NCBI RefSeq assembly: GCF_902827225.1
Contig: NZ_LR792632.1
Span: 119,030 to 143,029 of the forward strand
Length of the DNA: 24,000 nt
From: Methanocaldococcus lauensis
GTDB lineage: Archaea > AGJL01 > Methanococci > Methanococcales > Methanocaldococcaceae
Direction of reading: 5' to 3'
Of this stretch, positions 1,185 through 23,817 are shown piece by piece; position 1 is the first letter of the stretch; every line of letters starts with the position of its first letter. The notes beneath the pieces were generated by a model. That model had not been told where the DNA came from, did no database searches, and saw nothing but the letters and a program-made list of their open reading frames with translations. The position numbers and the translations under genes were made by a program.

Positions 1185-1373
1185 ATGAGTAAGAGAATTC
1201 AGGTCACATTTACAAAAGAACAGTGGAGTATGATAGAAAAATTTCGTGGAATATTGGGAGAAAGTGACGCTGAATTAATTCGTAATATTGTGTTAATTTG
1301 GTTATCTGAAAAATCTATAATAACTACAAAAATAAAAAAAGAGATGGATGATGAAAATGGAAATAGAAACTAA
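1185..1373 (+). CDS. Small ribbon-helix-helix (CopG/Arc-like) protein, candidate controller of the adjacent R-M system
   Basis: The N-terminus MSKRIQVTFTKEQWSMIEKF.. fits an RHH beta-strand followed by a helix. I prefer the ATG at 1185 over the GTG at 1167 used by the ORF track. A TTTTATAT box at 1158-1165 would give a nearly leaderless mRNA. The 3' end overlaps the methyltransferase start by 26 nt. Confidence 0.5.
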   Translation: MSKRIQVTFTKEQWSMIEKFRGILGESDAELIRNIVLIWLSEKSIITTKIKKEMDDENGNRN

Positions 1374-2271
1374 TCATAAAATAATCTTTGGAGATTCAAG
1401 GAAAATGGATGAAATTGATGATGAAAGTGTCCATTTAGTTGTGACCTCTCCTCCATACCCTATGATTGAAATGTGGGATGATTTATTTAAATCTTTGAAC
1501 CCAAAAATAGAGAAAATATGGGAAAATATAGAAAATGAAGAAGATGAAGAAAAAAAAGAAAAAAATATTATAAAAATATATAATTTAATGCATGAAACTT
1601 TGTTACCTACTTGGGAAGAGATTTATAGAGTATTAGTTCCTGGAGGAATAGTTTGTATAAATATAGGTGATGCAACAAGAAAAGTTAATGGTATTTTTAG
1701 GTTGTTTCCAAATCATTCTAAGATAATAGAACACTTTGAGAAAATTGGATTCGTAACTCTTCCTTATATACTATGGAAAAAACCTACAAATAAGCCAAAT
1801 GCTTTTTTAGGTTCAGGATTTTTGCCTCCTAATGCCTATGTAACACTTGATGTTGAATTTATATTAATATTCAGAAAAGGAAAGCCAAGAAAATTTAAAC
1901 CCAAAGACCCATTAAGATATGCAAGTGCATACACAAAAGAAGAGAGAGACAAATGGTTTAGCCAAATATGGGAAGATATAAGGGGAGATAAACAAATACA
2001 TCCAAAAATAGAAAGACGAACAGCATCATATCCAGAAGAAATTCCAAGGAGATTAATTAGAATGTTTTCTATAATAGGAGACACAGTTTTAGACCCATTC
2101 TTAGGAACAGGAACTACAACAAAAGTAGCAATTGAATTAAAAAGAAATTCGATTGGTTATGAAATTGATGAAAACTTAAAGCCAATAATTGAAGAAAAAA
2201 TAGGTATAAAACAAAAAAGAATTGGGATAGATTTTAATGTGGAATTTCTTTATCGTAGTAAATCAGAGTAA
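1348..2271 (+). CDS. Beta-class DNA methyltransferase (SPPY catalytic motif, probably N4-cytosine; N6-adenine not excluded)
   Basis: Motif IV VTSPPYP is near the N-terminus and motif I VLDPFLGTGTT is near the C-terminus, which is the beta-class order. There is an acidic insert (ENIENEEDEEKKEK). It is convergent with a putative endonuclease. Confidence 0.9.
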   Translation: MMKMEIETNHKIIFGDSRKMDEIDDESVHLVVTSPPYPMIEMWDDLFKSLNPKIEKIWENIENEEDEEKKEKNIIKIYNLMHETLLPTWEEIYRVLVPGGIVCINIGDATRKVNGIFRLFPNHSKIIEHFEKIGFVTLPYILWKKPTNKPNAFLGSGFLPPNAYVTLDVEFILIFRKGKPRKFKPKDPLRYASAYTKEERDKWFSQIWEDIRGDKQIHPKIERRTASYPEEIPRRLIRMFSIIGDTVLDPFLGTGTTTKVAIELKRNSIGYEIDENLKPIIEEKIGIKQKRIGIDFNVEFLYRSKSE

Positions 2272-2855
2272 TCAATTTCTATTTCATTCTTTTTCTTTTG
2301 ATAGATTATGATTTTTCCTTTAAGTTCTTCCTTGAGATGTTTTTCCTGAAGATAAGAAGATGGTTTTATCGAGACCGGAATATCTCCAATATAACCATCA
2401 ATACCTTTACTTTCTTCATCTGGTGTTGATAATCTATAAGATTTTCCCATTTCTTCAGCGACCTTTTTCAAAATAGCTTCTTGAAGGTTGAGTCCCATAA
2501 ATGTCTTAACTAAAATTAAGTCCTCGACCCATTTTCTTATGGTTTTTTCATCAAGTTCATTTAGAACTTTTTTGAAATCATTTATTTTTTCCATAATCTT
2601 TTTAGTGGCTTCATCAATAGCGTTTGGATATTTTGATAAGTACCATTTTTTCCAATCTTCAAATGTTTTGCCTCCATTTGCTTTAAATTCTTTCATTAGT
2701 TCAGACATTTGTCCAACATTTTTTGGTCTTGTAGCTTGGGAATATATATTGGCAAGATTTATTAATTGGGAAGCATATTTTGGAAATTCTGGATTAGGGA
2801 GGGAAAGTAAATCTCTAACTTCATCATATTTTAATTTAGTTTTACCTTTCTGCAT
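2250..2855 (-). CDS. Putative type II restriction endonuclease (possible PD-(D/E)xK core ..GIDGY..VSIKP..)
   Basis: About 200-aa ORF convergent with the methyltransferase, with a 22-nt 3' overlap. Candidate catalytic D..(S)IK pattern near the C-terminus. I prefer the ATG start (MQKGKT..) at 2855, which is preceded by GTGATA. The product call is by context only. Confidence 0.5.
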   Translation of the reverse strand: MQKGKTKLKYDEVRDLLSLPNPEFPKYASQLINLANIYSQATRPKNVGQMSELMKEFKANGGKTFEDWKKWYLSKYPNAIDEATKKIMEKINDFKKVLNELDEKTIRKWVEDLILVKTFMGLNLQEAILKKVAEEMGKSYRLSTPDEESKGIDGYIGDIPVSIKPSSYLQEKHLKEELKGKIIIYQKKKNEIEIDYSDLLR

Positions 2856-2949
2856 TATATCACAACACAATAAAATTTATTTTATGTTTTAGTGTTTAAT
2901 TTATGACTTGTAAATAAATAATTTTTTATTGTTTTGTTGTGATAGCATG
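2853..2949. promoter_or_regulatory. Symmetric divergent control region: imperfect 23-26-bp inverted repeat spanning both start codons
   Basis: 2853-2875 (CATTATATCACAACACAATAAAA) matches the reverse complement of 2924-2949 (CATGCTATCACAACAAAACAATAAAA). The perfect 10-mer core is TATCACAACA (2858-2867) / TGTTGTGATA (2935-2944), and the centre is near 2901. Confidence 0.45.
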
Positions 2950-4140: not shown

Positions 4141-5276
4141 ATTTCCATCCCCTTAGGGGTCTGAGTTTTAAACCCATAGGGGGCTCTGCCCCCTATTAGT
4201 ATACCCCCGAATATTTGCCTTTTTGTTTAATTTTAGATATCCCGAACCATAGGGCTCCGCCCTATTGGGATACCCGGGATGCATTGCTTCGCTAACGCTC
4301 AGCAATGCATCTTAAATTAAAATCATTTTCCCTTAGGGGTCTGATTTTAGACTACACAGTTTCAGGACATATTGACAAAATAAAACTAACCTTTCCATCC
4401 CCTTAGGGGTCTGATTTTAGGCATTTAAACTTCATTTTCCCTCACCTTTGCCCTTGTTGTTTCCATCCCCTTAGGGGTCTGATTTTAGACCGTAACTAAC
4501 TTATCAAACCAAAACTTAAAGATTTATTGTTTCCATCCCCTTAGGGGTCTGATTTTAGACTTATGAAAACGGGATAACATATCTGAACAATACTTAGTTT
4601 CCATCCCCCTAGGGGTCTGATTTTAGACTGAGCATAATGTAAAAATCGAAGAAATTAAAAATAACTTAGAAGAATGTTTCCATCCCCTTAGGGGTCTGAT
4701 TTTAGACGCTGGATATGATATGGAGACGTTAGAAATTGTCGATGTTTCCATCCCCTTAGGGGTCTGATTTTAGACATATATAAATTCATTAATATATTCG
4801 GATAATAAAAAAAGTTTCCATCCCCTTAGGGGTCTGATTTTAGACAAGTTATAAAAGAAGTTAGAGAGATTAAAAAAGAGGTGTTTCCATCCCCTTAGAG
4901 GTCTGATTTTAGACTTTTATTTTACAATTTTTTTAGGGGGGCATTATGTTTTTGTTTCCATCCCCTTAGGGGTCTGATTTTAGACCAAGCAGGCGACACT
5001 TCAACGAGTTCGTGTAAACTTAGTTTCCATCCCCTTAGGGGTCTGATTTTAGACAGAAATAAGAAAAATCATAAGAGAAAGTATAAAAGAAGCATTAGAA
5101 GGTTTCCATCCCCTTAGGGGTCTGATTTTAGACGAAAGCATAAAGAGAATTCCAAAAGGAATTTGGGAATTTTTGTTTCCATCCCCTTAGGGGTCTGATT
5201 TTAGACATTTTTCTTTTTAGTTTCTACATATCCATATCTTTTTAGTTTCCATCCCCTTAGGGGTCTGATTTTAGAC
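4141..5276 (-). CRISPR. CRISPR array A: 13 conserved 32-nt repeats plus 3 decayed trailer repeats
   Basis: The repeat reads GTTTCCATCCCCTTAGGGGTCTGATTTTAGAC on the plus strand. Copies start at 4391, 4459, 4529, 4597, 4676, 4744, 4814, 4883, 4954, 5023, 5102, 5175 and 5245. The 12 spacers between them are unique and 36-47 nt long. Point variants occur in the repeats at 4391, 4597 and 4883. Decayed repeats lie at 4141-4173, about 4208-4239 and 4325-4352. Strand call: decay is at the low-coordinate end, and the reverse complement ends in ..GGAUGGAAAC, which resembles the AUUGAAAC-type 8-nt crRNA 5' handle. Confidence 0.95.
4174..4311. repeat. Two hairpin elements and one 10-bp-stem palindrome inside the decayed trailer of array A
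   Basis: 4174-4208 is CCATAGGGGGC-TCT-GCCCCCTATTAGTATACCCCC. 4238-4278 is TATCCCGAACCATAGGGC-TCC-GCCCTATTGGGATACCCGGG. 4278-4311 is GATGCATTGC-(TTCGCTAACGCTCA)-GCAATGCATC. Confidence 0.85.
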
Positions 5277-5640
5277 AGGGCATAATTTTTTGAGATTAAG
5301 GACTAAAATTACTTTATTATGCTTCTTTGTTGGGGGGTTATAGTTTGGAGGGTCAGTAACCCTTGTTATTTATATACCTCCGAACTTATATATAAACTTT
5401 TCTATTTTTATTTATTAGTTTAAAAATTCTTTAAATTTTTATTATTAACTTATTTATCGGGGAAAATTGAAGATAAAAATAAATTACTAAAATCTCCTAA
5501 AAATCTCAATAATTTAATAAAACCAAATACTCAAATTAATCAAAATAGAAGACCCTTCGAAATTTGATAAAATCTTTTAAAATTTAAAAATTTCAAATTA
5601 AATCCCTCCAAATCAAAAAATAAAAATTTTTAGCGAGGGA
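5277..5640 (-). promoter_or_regulatory. Leader of CRISPR array A with a candidate TATA box
   Basis: AT-rich non-coding DNA flanks the best-conserved repeat. On the minus strand TTTATATATA (complement of 5387-5396) lies about 110 nt from the first repeat. A degenerate member of the hairpin family sits at about 5332-5383 (GGAGGGT-CAGTA-ACCCTT..TATATACCTCCGAA). The outer boundary is uncertain. Confidence 0.55.
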
Positions 5641-5689
5641 AAATATCTAAATGGAACTGCTATTAAATCGAAGATGTGGTTTCTTTAAA

Positions 5690-5835
5690 CCCCGATTGCC
5701 AGCCGATGAACTTAGGAGGCTGGAAGGTTCTTCGCTACAATTTCTTCCAGTAGCGGAGAACCAGAACGGTCTGTCTCCGTTCAGCCTGGAAGTCCAATGA
5801 ACTTATGGCAGAGAGATTGGCATTCTCGATGAAAT
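5690..5835 (+). ncRNA. GC-rich structured RNA candidate of unknown family
   Basis: This is an isolated GC-rich island in AT-rich non-coding DNA. One hairpin pairs 5726-5738 (GGTTCTTCGCTAC) with 5750-5762 (GTAGCGGAGAACC) over 13 bp; it contains one pair that is U-G on the plus strand but A-C on the minus strand. A second hairpin pairs 5764-5769 with 5777-5782 (GAACGG/CCGTTC). CCAGCC at 5699-5704 pairs with GGCTGG at 5718-5723. The motif CCRATGAACTTAKGG is duplicated at 5703-5716 and 5794-5808. The strand call is weak. Confidence 0.4.
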
Positions 5836-5932
5836 TTCCATAGATATCGGTTTATATAAATTAAGTTGTTAAATGCTATAATATGCTATGGAAATGGAAA
5901 ACAGTCTCCGTTACTATTCGTTCTGTATATGT

Positions 5933-17516: not shown

Positions 17517-18440
17517 ATGATTGCTAAGTATATAATAAAGCATGGATTAGAGTTAGCACATGACATTAAAGCAGATGCATTTATGATATTTACAGAAACT
17601 GGGAACTCTTATGAAATACTAAAAAAACTACTAAAAAAAAGCAATAACACAAAAATATTTGATATTTTGAATATACACAAAAAATTAAAAATAATTGTAG
17701 CTACTCCAAATAAAGCAACTTACAAAAAAATTACCAAAGAAAATATTGACAGTGTTTATCCTTTATATATTAAGCATAGAGAAGACAACAGATGCATGAT
17801 AATAAGTAGCGGGATAGTTCATGCCCTTCAATTAAATATTTTAAAAGATAATTATAGAATTGTAGCTGTAGTTGGAGAGCCAAAAGTTCCTGGTAAGTTA
17901 GATACTATAATGGTTGTTAATGTGAAAGATCACGTAAAAGAGTTAGAATTATATAAACTCTTTGAAGAGTTAGATGAAAAACAGAAAAAAACATTAAAAG
18001 AAATTTTAAAATTAGCTATGGAGATTGGGAGAGAGGGAAGAGAAGGAAAATATGTAGGAACAATATTTGTTATTGGAGATACTTTAAATGTTATGAGTAT
18101 GTCAAAACCTTTAATATTAAATCCATTTGCAGGACACGATGCAAGTATCTTTGATGAAAATGTAAAAGGGACTATAAAAGAACTCTCATCAATAGATGGA
18201 GCATTTATAATTACTGACGAAGGAAAAGTAGTTTCTGCTGGAAGACTTATAGAATGTAAAGGAGATATTAACATTAAAAAAGGATTAGGAGCGAGACACG
18301 TAGCTGCAGCAAGTATAACAAAAAATACAAATGCCATTGCCGTTACAGTATCTCAAAGTGGTGGAATAGTTAGAATATTTAAAGATGGCAAAATTGTTTT
18401 TGAAGCAGACCCAAGGGAGAATATTTTATTACTTGAATGA
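17517..18440 (+). CDS. dacZ: DacZ-type diadenylate cyclase (pyruvate-kinase-C-like N-domain plus DAC domain)
   Basis: DAC-domain motifs ..GTIFVIGD.., ..DGAFII.., ..GLGARHVAAASIT.., ..VSQSGGIVRIF... The N-terminal ..ADAFMIFTETGNS.. resembles the PK C-terminal fold. GGTGGA ribosome-binding site. Confidence 0.8.
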   Translation: MIAKYIIKHGLELAHDIKADAFMIFTETGNSYEILKKLLKKSNNTKIFDILNIHKKLKIIVATPNKATYKKITKENIDSVYPLYIKHREDNRCMIISSGIVHALQLNILKDNYRIVAVVGEPKVPGKLDTIMVVNVKDHVKELELYKLFEELDEKQKKTLKEILKLAMEIGREGREGKYVGTIFVIGDTLNVMSMSKPLILNPFAGHDASIFDENVKGTIKELSSIDGAFIITDEGKVVSAGRLIECKGDINIKKGLGARHVAAASITKNTNAIAVTVSQSGGIVRIFKDGKIVFEADPRENILLLE

Positions 18441-18445
18441 TTATG

Positions 18446-18573
18446 GTTTATTAAAATAAGGATGGAAACCTGTATAAAAATAAAAATAATTAAAAAAAGC
18501 AAGCTTAATATGGGAGGTATACCAATAGGAGGGTGGAACCCTCCTATGGGTTTATTAAAATAAGGATGAAAAC
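18446..18573 (+). repeat. Two 24-nt mini-repeats (deletion derivatives of the 37-nt class B CRISPR repeat) flanking an 80-nt segment with a hairpin element
   Basis: GTTTATTAAAATAAGGATGGAAAC at 18446-18469 and GTTTATTAAAATAAGGATGAAAAC at 18550-18573. Hairpin element GGGAGGTATACCAATAGGAGGGT-GGA-ACCCTCCTATGGG at 18512-18550. Confidence 0.8.
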
Positions 18574-18596
18574 AGTGTAATAAGATAGAAAAATGA

Positions 18597-18821
18597 GGAA
18601 GTATTCTCAATCGAAGGATTATTGAAGAAGTAGATTGGATGAAACCAATATGTCCAAGACTTTTATGTTTTGCAGATAATGTAAATTTAGCTAAAGCAAT
18701 AAAATACGCTTCTGAAAAAGTAAATGGAAGTGGGGGAAGGCATAAATTTGCTTGTGGAGCATATATACCAAATAATAAAAGGGAGTTTATAAAATATCTT
18801 AAATTATTTTATGGTGATATT
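18597..18821 (+). pseudogene. Possible C-terminal remnant of a DHH/DHHA1-family phosphoesterase, in frame with cas6b
   Basis: The frame is open from 18597. ..[31 protein letters not shown].. resembles the DHHA1 GGGHxxAAG motif region with two substitutions. There is no N-terminal DHH domain upstream, only CRISPR-repeat debris. Confidence 0.3.
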
Positions 18822-19487
18822 GTGCAAATTCCACTTTTAATAGTTCGTTTAAAAACAGATAAACCACTTAAAAAATCACAAACACCATTTTTGAGAGGTT
18901 ATATTTTAAATATATTTGGTAAAGAAAATTATGTGGAGTTGCATAATCATAGCGGGAATGGTTTTGTCTATACCTATCCAAAAATACAGTATAAAATCAT
19001 TAGTGGAGATGCTGTTTTAATTGGTATAAAAGAAGGAATAAACATTTTGGGAGAGATTATTTTAGACATTAGAGAGTTGAATTTGAAAGGGGAAGTTTAT
19101 AAGGTTGTAAATGGTTATGCAAAGGTTAAATTTGAAGAATTTGGAGTTGCTGATGAGATGATAAAATATAAGTTTATCTCTCCATGGATTGCTTTGAATG
19201 AGAAAAATTATTTAAAATATAAAGAGTTGGATGATGAAGGAAAAAAAGAACTGTTAGAAAGGATTTTAGTTGGAAATGTTTTGTCAATGAGTAAGTATTT
19301 AAATTACACTGTTGAAGAAAAACTAAAAGCAGAGTTTTTAAAATTTAATGATTTAGTTGTTAAATACAAAGGCAATAAGTTTATTGGCTTTTTTGGAGAA
19401 TTTTTAATTAACTTTAATATTCCAAATTATTTAGGAATTGGTAGAAAAGTTTCTAAGGGCTTTGGAAGTGTTGTTAGAATACCATAG
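18822..19487 (+). CDS. cas6b: CRISPR RNA endonuclease Cas6b-like
   Basis: ..[18 protein letters not shown] (H-x-H)..YTYPKIQYK.. and the C-terminal glycine-rich loop [13 protein letters not shown]. The GTG at 18822 is preceded by GGTGATATT, the same box used by cas3 (GGTGATATT-ATG). The ORF track instead starts at an upstream ATG (18639) inside the in-frame remnant. Confidence 0.7.
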
Positions 19488-19531
19488 ATAGGACTTTGCT
19501 TCCTTTATTGGCATATATTTCTATTTTTTTA

Positions 19532-19568
19532 ATTTGTATCCTTGTTTTAATGGACTACCTATTCAAAC
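19532..19568 (-). repeat. Solitary class B CRISPR repeat (37 nt, 5 mismatches to the copy at 21192-21228)
   Basis: ATTTGTATCCTTGTTTTAATGGACTACCTATTCAAAC compared with GTTTCCATCCTTGTTTTAATGGACTACCGATTTAAAC. Confidence 0.8.
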
Positions 19569-19805
19569 CCTTACAACTATTGCTTATTTTATACTCAAAC
19601 TCCTATATATAATTTTCTTTTTTTAGGTGAATTTTCTGACTGCCTATTTATCAAACCATTTATAATCTTAAAATTCCTTACGGAATTTTAAAACTTATTC
19701 GCTACGCTCATAAGAAGTAAGAAAGATTATGCAATAATTTTATAAATAAAATGCACAAATTGTAAAGAAAAAAATTTCAATAAAATGAAAATATTGTTTT
19801 TATAT
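19569..19805 (-). promoter_or_regulatory. Leader copy a (paralog of the leader at 21229-21410), carrying a 48-nt double-hairpin insertion
   Basis: It aligns by eye with 21229-21410 over most positions (..CAACTATTGCTTATTYTATAYTCAAACTCCTATATA.., ..TTTTCTGACTGCCT.., ..GTAAGAAAG.., ..TATAAATAAAATGCACAA..). The segment 19666-19713 is absent from copy b. Confidence 0.7.
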
Positions 19806-19822
19806 AATTTAGTAGAGAATCT

Positions 19823-19871
19823 GTTTTATTCCTTATTTTATGGAGTGAATCTTTGGACTAAGGATTCAAAC
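19823..19871 (-). repeat. Degenerate class B repeat with a 13-nt internal insertion
   Basis: GTTTTATTCCTTATTTTATGGA[GTGAATCTTTGGA]CTAAGGATTCAAAC. Confidence 0.6.
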
Positions 19872-19886
19872 TTAAAAACCTCTTTT

Positions 19887-20384
19887 CTAAATCTTTGGGA
19901 AATACTTATATTTATCCCCCTCTCGTTCCCCAATCTTTTTTAAATGCCTTAAAATATTTTCAAAGCCTTTAACATTTTGAAATTCAACAATATTTAATAA
20001 ATATTGAATTTTATTAGCGTATTCTTTAGCATCATTTACTTCTTTTATTGTTATTTTATGAATAATGTTATAATCTGAAAGTTTTCTTAAATTGTGGAGA
20101 TTGTATAACATATTGGATATTTCCATTAATTCTTGACTTTTTATTATCTTTGAGAGCTTGTATAAGTAAATTCTAATTATTTTATGAACTAATCCAGATG
20201 TGTAATATTTTTCAAGTTCTTCTCTTTTATCTATATCCCATATAATCTCTCTAAGAGTTAAAAAGATTGAATAATAGTATCTTCCAATTGCAGTTCTATA
20301 TTTTCCTTCTTTTGGAAGTGTTTCAAAGTTAGGAAGTTTTTCAGCAATTTCTTTAAATTCATCTACATTAAATTTTTTATTCAT
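19887..20384 (-). CDS. HEPN-domain protein (classical HEPN/UPF0332-like), putative toxin
   Basis: ..YRTAIGRYYYSIFLTLREII.. and ..LHNLRKLSDYN.. resemble the two conserved helices of the classical HEPN domain (R..DY). The start overlaps the upstream gene by 8 nt (ATGAATAA). Confidence 0.55.
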   Translation of the reverse strand: MNKKFNVDEFKEIAEKLPNFETLPKEGKYRTAIGRYYYSIFLTLREIIWDIDKREELEKYYTSGLVHKIIRIYLYKLSKIIKSQELMEISNMLYNLHNLRKLSDYNIIHKITIKEVNDAKEYANKIQYLLNIVEFQNVKGFENILRHLKKIGEREGDKYKYFPKI

Positions 20385-20763
20385 TGTATTCCCTCATAAT
20401 AATTACTGCATTATAAAGAGGGGCATCCTCAAATTTAGAATCTATGAGAGAATACAACTTATTTTCAATTATAATTTTTTCATTTGAATCAATATCTTTA
20501 ACCAAAACACAAATTATGTTCATTTCATCATCTAAATCGTAATCTAATAATATACTAAAATTTAAATTTTTATGATATTTCTTTAAATACTTTTCAACAT
20601 ACTCAGCAATTTCAAAGGCAATATTTTTATTTTTTGAATATTTTTCAAATAATTTGGTTTTTTTAAATTTCTTTTTTAATGCTTCTTTTTTTAAAATCTC
20701 TATTGCCTCTTTTTTTGATATTAAAGCAGGAAGTTCTAAAGTTACCTTAACTTTAGATTTCAC
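20377..20763 (-). CDS. HEPN-associated partner protein with an RHH-like N-terminus and no recognisable nucleotidyltransferase motif
   Basis: The GTG start is preceded by GGTGATACT. The N-terminus KVKVTLELPALISKKEAIEILKKEAL fits a beta-strand plus helix. There is no G[SG]..DxD minimal-nucleotidyltransferase (MNT) signature. It is translationally coupled to the HEPN gene. Confidence 0.45.
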   Translation of the reverse strand: MKSKVKVTLELPALISKKEAIEILKKEALKKKFKKTKLFEKYSKNKNIAFEIAEYVEKYLKKYHKNLNFSILLDYDLDDEMNIICVLVKDIDSNEKIIIENKLYSLIDSKFEDAPLYNAVIIMREYNE

Positions 20764-20836
20764 AGTATCACCAAAATTATAATATAGGTTTTAAAAATAT
20801 TTAAAAATATTGGTAGAGTGTTTTTAAAAACAAAAA

Positions 20837-21228
20837 AAGTTTTTTATTAATCCATAGAAAGGCAAAACCTCCTCTATTGGAAATTCCCCCTTTTTAGAAA
20901 AACTATTTTTTATCCTTGTTTTAATAAACCCATAGGAGGGTTTCACCCTCCTATTGGTATACCTCCCATATTAAGCTTGCTTTTTTTAATTTAGGGTATA
21001 GGGCGGAGCCCCCTATTGGTATACCCCCAGAGTATTCTATTTTTTATTTGTTATTCCTTGTTTTAATAAACCCATAGGGGCTTCGCCCCTATTGGTATAC
21101 CCCATTTAATTTTAGTTATTATCCTTATTTTAATAGACTATCGATTCAAACATCCAATGAGAGCAGTACAAATGCATCCTGATCCCAACAAGTTTCCATC
21201 CTTGTTTTAATGGACTACCGATTTAAAC
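20837..21228 (-). CRISPR. CRISPR array B, largely decayed: two 37-nt repeats, then mini-repeat/hairpin units
   Basis: Repeat B1 is at 21192-21228 and B2 at 21115-21151 (7 mismatches), separated by a 40-nt spacer. Leftward lie mini-repeats at 21050-21071 and 20911-20929, with remnants near 20981-20990 and 20837-20850. Each is followed by a hairpin element (21071-21103, 20994-21028, 20929-20967, 20852-20890). Confidence 0.75.
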
Positions 21229-21410
21229 ACTACCAACTATTGCTTATTCTATATTCAAACTCCTATATAAATCTTTCTTTTAACACTCGATTTTTCTGAC
21301 TGCCTGATTATCAAAGTATTTATAAGAGTAAGAAAGTTTGTGCTAACTATTTATAAATAAAATGCACAACCACGAACAAAAATCTCAATAATTAAAAGTT
21401 ATTTTATATC
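21229..21410 (-). promoter_or_regulatory. Leader copy b of array B with a candidate TATA box
   Basis: Adjacent to the best-conserved class B repeat. On the minus strand TTTATATA (complement of 21264-21271) lies about 40 nt upstream of the repeat. It is a paralog of 19569-19805. Confidence 0.65.
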
Positions 21411-21661
21411 TTTATATCTTTAAAAATAAAATCAAACTTAAAACACATAAAATAAAAACAAATAACTAAAATCTATAAAAAATCTAAATTTTAATAGGAA
21501 AAAATTAGTATTACTTTTTACCATTTTTCTAGTACCAAATCCAAACAACCCCTTTATAAAAGCAAGAAAGTAAAATTAAAAAATCTAATATATATATTAA
21601 AAAATCCAATAACAAAAACTAAATACAATAATACATAAAAACTTATGCTAAAGGTGATATT

Positions 21662-23056
21662 ATGCTACTATCTCATCCAAATTATCCTTTAAAAAGTCAT
21701 CTGATTAATACAAAAAATAGAGCATTGGAAAAATACAAACCTCCAAAATTAAAATATTTTGAAGGAGAAATAATAAGAGAAATTTTAAAAATCATAACAT
21801 TATCACACGATTTTGGAAAAGCAACAATTTACTTTCAAAAATACATTAGAGGAGAAAAAGTCAAAAATTCTTTAAAAAAATATTCTACAATTTCATTTTT
21901 ATTAACAAACTATGTAATTGAAGAGTTTCTAAAGAATTACAACATAAAAAATAACTATTATCAACTATTTTCTTTGTGTGTTAAAAATCACCACTCCTTT
22001 ATAAGCAATCCAATACACGACTTAGGTAGTGTAGAGGAAAATAAAGACTTACTAAAAGAGCAGTTTAACTCATTGGACATTGATTTTATAAACAATATTT
22101 TGAAAGAAAATAATTTACCAGTAATTGAAGATGACTTTTCTAATATCTTAGAAAAATTTTATAATTTAGAGGATATTTATGAAGATTTGTATGATGAAAA
22201 TAATGAGCTAAAATATGAGTTCTATTTACTCTACCTATATTTATTTTCGTTGTTAATATGTTCTGACAAAGAAGATGCAATATTTAAAGGTAGAATTGTA
22301 AAAAGCTATCCAACACTACCATATAGCATTGAAAATTATATCAAAAATCTCCCAAAGAAAAATGACATTGACTATCTAAGAACAAAAATGTTTTTTGAAA
22401 TAGATAAAAAGGTTGATGAAATTGATTTGAATCATAGAATTTACTCTTTGAATGCTCCAACTGGAATGGGAAAAACTTTAACTATCTTCAATTTTGCATT
22501 AAAATTGGCTAATAGAATCAAAAGAGAAAAAGGCATTAACATGAGAATAATTTATTGCCTACCATTTTTAAGTATCATAGACCAAAATTATGCTGTTTTA
22601 GAAAAAGTATTAGAAAAAACTTTAAAAAATCAAATAACATCTGATATTCTTTTAAAACATCACCACTTATCAGATATTTCTTATAAAATAGAGGAGGAAG
22701 AAGTAGATGTTGATGAATCTCTCCATTTAATAGAAACATGGAACTCAAAAATAATAACTACAACTTTTATGCAACTTTTTTATAGTATATTTTCTAACAA
22801 AAACAAAAATTTAAAAAAATTTTATGCATTAAGTAATTCAATAATTATCTTAGATGAGATACAGGCAATTCCTTATAAATATTGGCATGCGATAAATAAA
22901 ATCTTCAAATTTTTGGCAGAGGAATATAATATTTACTTTATATTATGCACAGCAACACTTCCAATGATTTTTGAAGATAATATAGAGCTCTTAGATAATA
23001 AAGAAGAATACTTCAACAAAATGAATAGAACAAAAAAGAGATTTATAATGCATTAA
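21662..23056 (+). CDS. cas3: Cas3 part 1: HD nuclease domain and helicase motifs I-III
   Basis: HD motif ..LSHDFGKAT.., also ..NHHSF.. and ..CSDKEDA... Helicase motif I NAPTGMGKT, motif II ILDEIQ, motif III CTATLP. GGTGATATT-ATG start. It ends 5 codons after an A_AAA_AAG heptamer. Confidence 0.85.
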   Translation: MLLSHPNYPLKSHLINTKNRALEKYKPPKLKYFEGEIIREILKIITLSHDFGKATIYFQKYIRGEKVKNSLKKYSTISFLLTNYVIEEFLKNYNIKNNYYQLFSLCVKNHHSFISNPIHDLGSVEENKDLLKEQFNSLDIDFINNILKENNLPVIEDDFSNILEKFYNLEDIYEDLYDENNELKYEFYLLYLYLFSLLICSDKEDAIFKGRIVKSYPTLPYSIENYIKNLPKKNDIDYLRTKMFFEIDKKVDEIDLNHRIYSLNAPTGMGKTLTIFNFALKLANRIKREKGINMRIIYCLPFLSIIDQNYAVLEKVLEKTLKNQITSDILLKHHHLSDISYKIEEEEVDVDESLHLIETWNSKIITTTFMQLFYSIFSNKNKNLKKFYALSNSIIILDEIQAIPYKYWHAINKIFKFLAEEYNIYFILCTATLPMIFEDNIELLDNKEEYFNKMNRTKKRFIMH

Positions 23057-23817
23057 AAGAAATGGATTTAGAGGGAGATTTTTACTATTTATCAACAAAC
23101 ATCTATCCAAAAGAGAGATTAAATAGGATTAAAGAAATAAACAGAAATAAGAATAGGAAGATTATTGTTTCAACTCAATTAATTGAGGCTGGAGTTGATA
23201 TAAGCGTTGATGTGATTTATAGAGATATTGCTCCTTTTGATGCTATAAATCAAACTGCTGGAAGGAGACATAATGAAGGTAGAAGGGGAATAGTAAATAT
23301 TGTTAAGTTAGTGGATGATAAAGGAAGGAAATATGCCTCTTACATTTATGAAAAGCATCTTATAACTAAGACAGAGGAATTGTTAAATAAGTATGATGTT
23401 ATTGATGAAAGAGAATTTTTAAAATTAAACATCAAATATTTCCAAAAATTGAGGAATTATAAGGACAAATCAAAAGAAATCTTAAAAATAATTGAGAACT
23501 TTAAATATGATGAAATTAATAATAAATTTAAGCTAATTGAAAATCCTCCATCTATTGACTTGTTTGTTTGTGTTGAAGATGAAGCAGAAAAGGTTTGGGG
23601 GGAATATAAGACAATAATGGAAATAAAAAATATTTATGAAAGAAGAAAAAAATTTTTAGAAATAAAAAAGAAGTTTTATGAGTATGTTATAAGTGTTCCA
23701 GAGTATAGTATAAAAGGAAAGAATATTTTATTTAACCATTTGGATAAAATTGATGAAAAATATTATGATAGAGAAACGGGGTTTAAGATTGTTGAAGATA
23801 ATACACTAATACTATAA
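23029..23817 (+). CDS. cas3: Cas3 part 2: helicase C-terminal half, in the -1 frame relative to part 1
   Basis: The frame is open from 23029, and the first ATG is at 23062. ..VSTQLIEAGVDISVDVIYRDIAP.. is motif V and ..NQTAGRRHNEGRRG.. is motif VI. Homology continues across the junction if the reading shifts -1 at 23032-23038. Confidence 0.8.
   Translation, partial: NKKEIYNALKEMDLEGDFYYLSTNIYPKERLNRIKEINRNKNRKIIVSTQLIEAGVDISVDVIYRDIAPFDAINQTAGRRHNEGRRGIVNIVKLVDDKGRKYASYIYEKHLITKTEELLNKYDVIDEREFLKLNIKYFQKLRNYKDKSKEILKIIENFKYDEINNKFKLIENPPSIDLFVCVEDEAEKVWGEYKTIMEIKNIYERRKKFLEIKKKFYEYVISVPEYSIKGKNILFNHLDKIDEKYYDRETGFKIVEDNTLIL

Follow-up and report, generated by a model that had tools for sequence, protein, structure and literature searches.

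A HEPN-fold gene and its non-nucleotidyltransferase partner among the repeats of a decayed type I-B CRISPR locus in Methanocaldococcus lauensis

Organization of the gene pair and its locus

Here, a stretch of 24,000 nucleotides of Methanocaldococcus lauensis DNA (contig NZ_LR792632.1 of NCBI RefSeq assembly GCF_902827225.1, forward-strand positions 119,030 to 143,029; named "the window", to whose numbering all coordinates refer) was analyzed with respect to two overlapping genes that lie between the repeats of a type I-B CRISPR locus. Both genes are specified by the minus strand. The upstream gene (20377-20763) encodes a 128 aa protein, referred to as the partner, and begins with a GTG codon which is preceded, at a distance of 3 nt, by the Shine-Dalgarno (SD) sequence GGTGAT. 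The downstream gene (19887-20384) encodes a 165 aa HEPN-fold, HEPN-T-like protein and overlaps the partner gene by 8 nt. The HEPN stop codon is separated by 15 nt from a degenerate repeat (19871-19823). These open reading frame (ORF) coordinates, the overlap and the gap were confirmed and are as given in an initial annotation of the window, made by a model from the DNA letters. The gene pair, or dyad, has a GC content of 22-24% as compared to 28% for the window, and the HEPN protein and the partner are, respectively, 100% and 98% identical to M. lauensis database entries. A second M. lauensis assembly (GCA_902827205.1, locus L003; the "sister strain") is collinear with the window at 95-97.5% identity.

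The dyad is part of a scrambled class B repeat region spanning positions 18440-23817, and a class A array of 15 repeats is located at 4142-5310. Reading along the minus strand, the class B region consists of a leader (L1), a repeat (R1), a 40 nt spacer, a second repeat (R2), four hairpin units, in part joined to half-repeats, and a series of T runs, followed by the partner gene, the HEPN gene, a T5 run, the degenerate repeat, a second leader (L2), a solo repeat and the 3' end of cas6b.

The HEPN-fold protein

The assignment of the 165 aa protein to the HEPN superfamily, as proposed in the initial annotation, is borne out by structure prediction, the Pfam search alone being below threshold (PF05168, E 0.0067, with 17.0 bits where the gathering score is 22). 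A profile search of the PDB with the HEPN alignment returned only weak HEPN matches (E 0.03-0.8); matches to polyubiquitin in the same search, caused by a repeated resemblance to "LEDGRTLSDYNIQKE", were considered spurious and were disregarded. The AlphaFold2 (AF2) model is all-helical, with a predicted local distance difference test (pLDDT) score of 90.6, and its best PDB matches in Foldseek are HEPN proteins, i.e. 2hsb (probability 1.0, E 5e-3), 1wwp, 2q00, 4nqf, 1ylm and 5yep, including YutE and HepT, with template modelling (TM) scores by target of 0.5-0.63. The predicted model thus supports a four-helix up-and-down bundle of the HEPN fold, of HEPN-T type.

Invariant residues in the family alignment are found in the segment E26-G-x-Y-R-T-A-I-G-R-Y-Y-Y, at H67 and in L-R100-x3-D104-Y105. 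The canonical Rx4-6H RNase motif, which belongs to the terminal part of helix 3, is absent. R100-x3-D104-Y105 is present instead, D taking the position of the motif H, and the family does not conserve H109 of the window protein. Substitution of D for H, with a conserved H elsewhere, has been described for the HEPN-T/PF05168 variant, which includes the structures 1wwp and 2hsb and frequently clusters with restriction-modification (R-M) operons (Anantharaman et al., PMC3710099). The protein also possesses a C-terminal extension (aa 133-165) with the conserved sequence ...GFENILKHLKK...YKYFP. It matches phrog_5176 (E 2e-10), a virus protein family without assigned function, and no relatives were found when the HEPN alignment was compared to IMG/VR viral contigs.

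The partner protein

The partner is restricted to the Methanocaldococcaceae: its 32 homologues (clusters) all derive from Methanocaldococcus, Methanotorris or vent metagenomes, and an exhaustive profile search retrieved 11 members among 1.8 billion cluster representatives. No Pfam, NCBIfam, PADLOC or PHROG family was matched. The AF2 model (pLDDT 84) shows three helices and a beta-beta-alpha-beta unit, the N-terminus being unstructured, and a Foldseek search with this model gave no match at E<1e-3.

A minimal nucleotidyltransferase (MNT), the protein that normally pairs with HEPN, was rejected as identity of the partner, given that no NTP_transf_2/Polbeta match was present at E<=1, that no nucleotidyltransferase was among the top 50 Foldseek matches, and that an hhalign comparison to the genuine MNT of a neighbouring pair (locus L008) gave a probability of 0.1%. 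The partner alignment contains neither a G[SG] motif nor any invariant G; it does contain an invariant acidic strand, LLDYDLD, of which the first D varies (D/E/G) in distant homologues. The observation in the initial annotation that the partner is without the MNT signature was therefore correct. The same annotation had also considered the N-terminus to resemble a ribbon-helix-helix (RHH) strand-helix. No RHH family was matched in Pfam at E<=1, residues 1-16 of the AF2 monomer are coil (pLDDT 57-79) followed by helices at 17-32 and 37-42, and alignment by hhalign to CopG covered 12 strand columns only (probability 1.2%); beyond this 12-column strand match nothing was found in favour of an RHH domain. 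In one distant homologue, P0054, the partner is joined to an NTase_sub_bind (HEPN-M) domain, and the HEPN proteins with which the family pairs are therefore of more than one type. The partner is described as an alpha/beta protein and a putative antitoxin or regulator of the HEPN protein.

Occurrence of the gene pair in other genomes

The survey of the dyad comprises nine loci from one archaeal family, of which eight are outside M. lauensis. The order of partner followed by HEPN is maintained in 9/9 loci, in four kinds of neighbourhood, the 8 nt overlap of the window being replaced elsewhere by a 4 nt overlap or a 1 nt gap. M. vulcanius harbours two dyads, the second of which is paralogous (33%/39% identical), while in Methanotorris igneus the dyad is located inside a type I R-M operon, between TIR and hsdR in the order hsdM-hsdS-TIR-dyad-hsdR. 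A further dyad resides in a provirus-like metagenomic segment with an integrase, and in several metagenome-assembled genomes (MAGs) the dyad adjoins polysaccharide genes, once beside an MNT-HepT pair. Scanning of genome contigs with the partner alignment yielded two MAG loci only, both already known. Similarity between loci starts at the SD sequence and ends at the stop codon.

The fetched flanks of the eight dyads outside M. lauensis contain no class A or class B repeat, no GGATGGAAAC tag (the repeat end described below) and no hairpin element. As to whether homologues of the 128 aa protein are repeatedly located beside HEPN genes or inside CRISPR loci, as asked in the initial annotation, the former holds (9/9) and the latter does not, since the CRISPR context is confined to M. 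lauensis, where it is present in both strains. The association with CRISPR goes back to one event in a single species.

The HEPN gene is truncated in three of the nine dyads, to 118 aa in the sister strain (where the gene is frameshifted and the flanks are kept), to 124 aa in M. vulcanius and to 31 aa in the provirus-like locus, whereas the partner is truncated in none (0/9); likewise, 32 partner clusters were found as compared to 14 HEPN clusters. Such asymmetric decay fits the loss of a toxin with retention of its antitoxin.

CRISPR repeats and leaders flanking the gene pair

Repeats were searched for by Sellers edit-distance and mismatch scans. Leader L1 (21229-21618, minus strand), as delineated by an alignment of six leaders, shares 74% identity with the M. 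infernus leader across 434 nt, and its distal end abuts the start of cas3. It contains a B recognition element (BRE)/TATA sequence, AAAGAAAGATTTATATAGG, at about 21281-21263, being about 36 nt upstream of the first repeat; in the six-leader alignment this block is conserved across leaders and common to M. jannaschii and M. infernus, with whose leaders those of the window align. The leader is followed by a minus-strand mini-array (21115-21228) consisting of R1, which is intact (21228-21192, 37 nt, 0 edits, GTTTAAATCGGTAGTCCATTAAAACAAGGATGGAAAC), the 40 nt spacer (21191-21152) and R2, which is degenerate (21151-21115, 7 edits). The spacer has no match in the window, in the fetched loci or in viral contigs, and no 11-mer match to the module, its promoter or elsewhere in the window; a CreA-like self-targeting spacer was rejected on this basis.

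On the other side of the dyad, a degenerate terminal class B repeat (19823-19871, minus strand), found as a split match to R1, carries a 12 nt internal insertion, because of which it is not detected by an ungapped scan or by a scan at edit distance <=11. Its 5' half matches R1 at 14/17 positions, and R1 of the sister strain at 16/17, while 0.045 matches with <=3 mismatches would be expected by chance in the window, counting both strands. A gapped score of 33, as obtained for this repeat, is attained in 0.1% of random 100 nt segments, and the 3' half alone is of low complexity, with 1.3 chance matches per window at <=5 mismatches. The same repeat occurs in the sister strain (at position 10849 of L003), and it resembles the final repeat of a leader-repeat-spacer-repeat mini-array in M. 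jannaschii. The degenerate class B repeat that the initial annotation placed past the HEPN stop is therefore real, though split. It is followed by leader copy L2 (about 19569-19790) and a solo repeat (19568-19532, 5 edits), which together occupy 19532-19790 of the minus strand, were recognized by leader/repeat homology and abut the 3' end of cas6b; in M. jannaschii, a homologous leader and repeat adjoin a cas6b remnant. In the segment 19532-19620, running toward 19487, L2 keeps a conserved promoter, which drives only the solo repeat and then reads antisense into the 3' end of cas6b; as no T run lies between the solo repeat and this 3' end, an antisense cas6b transcript is possible.

The pre-crRNA (CRISPR RNA precursor) was assigned to the minus strand because of the leader promoter and homology, the distal position of the degenerate repeats, the tag match and the homology to the M. 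infernus leader and array. The tag match refers to the 3' end of the repeat, ATGGAAAC, which corresponds to the tag position of M. maripaludis Cas6b products, this enzyme leaving an 8 nt tag on 37 nt repeats (PMC3479195). The cleavage and tag context sought (GG immediately followed by ATGGAAAC) is, among the repeats around the module, kept only by R1. In R2, the half-repeats and the downstream repeat, GGATGGAAAC is replaced by AATAAC, AAAAAA or AATAAAAC, the sequences at the tag position being GGATAATAAC in R2, GGAATAAC and GGATAAAA in the half-repeats, and GGAATAAAAC at the 3' end of the downstream repeat.

T runs and BRE/TATA-like strings were read directly from the sequence, oligo-T stretches being termination signals in archaea. 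Runs of T5, T7 and T5 are present between the hairpin units and the partner gene; the T7 and T5 runs at 20826-20838 (minus strand), between the last hairpin unit and the gene pair, are followed by the TATA-like string TTTAAATA (20806-20799, minus strand) and then by the SD sequence GGTGAT. A further T5 run, which is archaeal terminator-like (19874-19878, minus strand), lies between the HEPN stop codon and the degenerate repeat. There are no runs of T>=5 between the L1 promoter and position 20902, and none within the mini-array.

R1, R2, the half-repeats and the terminal repeat together confirm that the pair is flanked by repeat-derived sequence co-oriented with the pre-crRNA. Its earlier depiction as a cargo in a spacer position is fair as a formal description, above all in the sister strain, where the order is leader, R1, hairpin plus cassette, and terminal repeat.

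State of the cas genes

The intact orthologous locus of M. infernus consists of an array, a leader and cas4-cas2-cas1 on one strand, followed by cas8b-cas7-cas5-cas3-cas6b on the other. In the window, leader homology (21191-21618) runs directly into cas3 homology (from 21643), from which it follows that about 5.4 kb, cas4 through cas5, was lost at that junction and not at the dyad, so that, relative to M. infernus, cas4-cas2-cas1-cas8b-cas7-cas5 is missing precisely from the interval that separates the leader from the start of cas3 (21618-21662). The dyad had been suggested to lie exactly where cas8b-cas7-cas5 are found in type I-B operons. This does not agree with the M. infernus gene order or with the mapping of the deletion to the L1/cas3 junction (21618/21643), and the dyad is therefore not in the effector slot. 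The genes cas5, cas7 and cas8 are absent from the window and, over a range of 10 kb, from the sister strain, and no Cascade or adaptation genes are left in the window locus.

The cas3 gene (21662-23817, plus strand) is a pseudogene, split into 21662-23056 and 23062-23817, with a deletion of about 116 nt at 23034/23035 that is seen relative to the sister strain as well as to M. infernus cas3; the fragments cover profile positions 3-419 and 468-706 of 711. In the sister strain, cas3 is instead broken near its 5' end, giving products of 70 and 657 aa, and the two strains therefore decayed independently.

The cas6b gene (18822-19487, plus strand; 221 aa, domains Cas6b_N and Cas6b_C) has a GTG start at 18822 and the SD sequence GGTGAT. 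The annotated ORF is longer (282 aa, start at 18639), its first 61 codons (18639-18821) being a C-terminal RecJ remnant of about 50 residues (RecJ_Meth positions 396-446 of 449 match aa 5-55 of this ORF); GTG 18822 is probably the true start, orthologues having 217-226 aa. The gene is apparently intact and retains an HNH..Y catalytic region, as compared by eye to the catalytic residues H38/H40/Y47 of M. maripaludis Cas6b (PMC3479195). In M. jannaschii, a full-length recJ (MJ0977) precedes a cas6b remnant (MJ0978), and cas6b of the window belongs to this different ancestral neighbourhood, recJ-cas6b. The M. jannaschii remnant further resembles the window in its leader/repeat neighbourhood, in a mini-array with a degenerate terminal repeat and in an unrelated co-oriented gene downstream of that mini-array. 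It differs in that cas6b of M. lauensis is full length and recJ is reduced to a stump, and in that M. lauensis has a second leader/array and a broken cas3 joined on, with the HEPN dyad between repeats. The locus is a clear example of the decay and scrambling of CRISPR-cas in Methanocaldococcus, encompassing the cas4-cas5 deletion, independent cas3 lesions, a recJ stump and palindromes fused to half-repeats, and it shows how an ordinary cassette may end up "inside" an array through such decay.

Interpretation of the gene pair

The explanation that is considered probable is that of a mobile Methanocaldococcaceae dyad, composed of a HEPN-T-like protein and a non-MNT partner and acting as a toxin-antitoxin (TA) or abortive-infection cassette, which is located in the trailer of a decayed type I-B remnant. 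Such a dyad would be self-contained, horizontally mobile and restricted to this family, with the 128 aa protein holding the upstream position that is usual for an MNT antitoxin and the downstream HEPN-T-type protein being the likely toxic or effector component. It would have come to lie in the class B mini-array trailer, which is formally a spacer slot, with the leader-proximal repeat on one side and the degenerate terminal repeat on the other; decay or rearrangement of the type I-B locus around it would have followed. Expression would most likely occur from its own AT-rich promoter and SD sequence, L1 pre-crRNA transcription probably stopping at the oligo-T runs upstream of the dyad, and the likely action would be that of a type II TA or abortive-infection system, in which the partner is made first and neutralizes the HEPN protein. 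The small, co-directional and overlapping genes stay paired across changing contexts (nine loci), which is a trait of type II TA cassettes.

The closest known systems are the MNT-HEPN dyads of type II/VII (HEPN-T, PF05168; AF_0298/AF_0299 and Shewanella HepT-MntA). Shared features are a small overlapping operon with the HEPN gene in 3' position, the HEPN four-helix fold with 2hsb and 1wwp as best structural matches, the replacement of the motif H by D with a conserved H elsewhere (here H67), and a patchy, mobile distribution which includes an R-M operon, such dyads being abundant in thermophilic archaea. The present dyad is different in its HEPN protein, which is below the Pfam threshold and carries the C-terminal extension, and in its 5' gene, which is not an MNT. 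Because of the latter, neutralization by AMPylation cannot be assumed, and HEPN control by other means is implied. The novelty resides in the partner family, which is very narrowly distributed and consistently takes the place of the MNT upstream of HEPN-T-type genes.

Several points weigh against a TA or abortive-infection cassette. Toxicity of the HEPN protein and its neutralization by the partner are putative, the truncation of HEPN in 3/9 dyads and of the partner in none being an indirect sign, and in view of the missing Rx4-6H motif and the sub-threshold Pfam score the HEPN protein possibly lacks RNase activity. In DNA of 75% A+T, promoter and terminator calls are weak evidence, the survey base is nine loci from one family of archaea, and the dyad is really flanked by co-oriented repeats in both M. 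lauensis strains, where leader-driven read-through is possible on sequence. A less likely, though not negligible, explanation is that the dyad is no TA or defence cassette: its HEPN protein would bind nucleic acids without being catalytic, the other protein would be an accessory factor, and the location of the pair, which might for instance be a regulator of (pro)viral origin, would be incidental. This would be consistent with the absence of Rx4-6H, as HEPN domains without this motif can be non-catalytic binders (PMC3710099), with the phrog_5176 match and with the one provirus-like context. It is, however, at odds with the invariant polar residues R100, D104, Y105 and H67, a pattern noted for potentially active HEPN-T proteins (PMC3710099), with the failure to find relatives in IMG/VR viral contigs, and with features that fit TA or defence cassettes, namely the overlapping order of 5' partner and 3' HEPN gene, a distribution that is patchy, the location within an R-M operon and the asymmetric decay of the two genes.

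The initial annotation had proposed instead that the dyad, as the cargo of a spacer position, is transcribed by read-through from the leader into an mRNA that Cas6b could trim or stabilize; this would be a protein-based analogue of CreTA, coupling a toxin module to the CRISPR machinery in an addiction-like way. This proposal draws on the co-oriented layout of leader, repeat, cassette and terminal repeat kept in two M. lauensis strains, on the intact R1 of the sister strain only about 120 nt upstream of the start codon, and on the conserved leader promoter with an adjoining, apparently intact orphan cas6b; it is nevertheless judged very improbable. Trimming or stabilization of the mRNA by Cas6b is not supported, considering that only R1 retains the cleavage site and GGATGGAAAC tag, that T runs (T5, T7 and T5 before the gene, T5 before the downstream repeat) intervene on both sides, and that the dyad has its own SD and TATA-like strings. 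The addiction coupling is not supported either: cas5, cas7 and cas8 are missing and cas3 is broken in both strains, leaving no effector whose retention a toxin could enforce, Cascade and adaptation genes being absent, while the HEPN gene of the sister strain is frameshifted although its flanks are kept, and 8/8 outside dyads are without CRISPR repeats. Moreover, the unrelated membrane-protein gene that is co-oriented downstream of the M. jannaschii mini-array shows that such layouts arise easily. The resemblance to CreTA is limited to a putative toxin module in a CRISPR-cas locus beside degenerate repeat-like elements. CreTA is RNA-based and requires Cascade guided by the CreA pseudo-crRNA, whose complementarity to the creT promoter is partial. 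In the present locus, proteins are the components, Cascade genes are absent, neither the module nor its promoter is matched by the sole spacer, and the association is confined to one species. In a slightly less probable variant, the dyad would be co-transcribed with the pre-crRNA and the orphan Cas6b would cut R1 to give an mRNA with the 5' tag AUGGAAAC, making HEPN expression Cas6b-dependent; if true, this could explain the retention of an intact orphan cas6b. Least probable of all is that the flanking repeats are chance AT-rich similarities and the CRISPR context illusory. The downstream repeat does fail the simple edit-distance scan and its 3' half is of low complexity, but its 5' half far exceeds the chance expectation given above, and R1, R2, two leaders with a conserved promoter and the array homology to M. 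infernus and M. jannaschii are unambiguous, so that this idea is already refuted. Since the CRISPR coupling lacks support, the locus opens no new CRISPR-toxin principle.

Hairpin elements and other features of the window

The "mini-repeat/hairpin units" of the initial annotation are real and represent copies of a dispersed palindromic element, GGTATACCAATAGGGG-loop-CCCCTATGG, for which 7 matches were found as compared to 0.25 expected. Palindrome matches define four copies on the minus strand at 20837-21104, designated H1 (21104-21048), H2 (21028-20995), H3 (20966-20906) and the degenerate H4 (20880-20837), of which H1 and H3 (fold z -3.6 and -3.8, respectively) are each fused to a class B 3' half-repeat. 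Near class B repeats the element is joined precisely to the 3' part (about 20 nt) of the repeat, and in the class A array to a nearly whole terminal repeat. Both arrays have clusters of it at their trailer ends (4175-4277, 18513-18573 and 20837-21104), and it also occurs in ordinary non-CRISPR intergenic DNA (L003, 1690-1905). Literature searches on palindromic elements and on M. lauensis gave nothing useful.

Palindrome and repeat scans located further hairpin/half-repeat units on the plus strand at 18443-18573. Positions 18487-18573 (plus) are an inverted copy of 20993-20907 (minus), forming an 87 nt unit that includes the upstream sequence AAAAAAGCAAGCTTAATAT. This inverted pair brackets cas6b, leader L2 and the HEPN dyad, its upstream copy is absent in the sister strain, and it could serve as a substrate for inversion or deletion. 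The 308 nt segment 21190-20883, containing the spacer, R2 and H1-H3, is found in the window but not in the sister strain. A second palindromic element, GATGCATTGCTTCGCTAACGCTCAGCAATGCATC, is located in the class A array trailer (4278-4313) and in non-CRISPR intergenic DNA of L003 (1837-1872).

Between the class A leader and ilvD, a GC-rich island (5655-5850) has about 52% GC in the 28% GC window and folds better than shuffled sequences (z -3.1 for the plus and -2.05 for the minus strand). No match to an Rfam family was obtained, even at E<=1, and the island may be an unannotated structured non-coding RNA of this hyperthermophile. Finally, a convergent gene pair at 1348-2870, consisting of an N6/N4 methyltransferase gene (1348-2271, plus strand) and a 206 aa ORF (2250-2870, minus strand), is homologous at the DNA level to the RE_MjaI/N6_N4_Mtase R-M pair of M. 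jannaschii (L013, 12540-14126).

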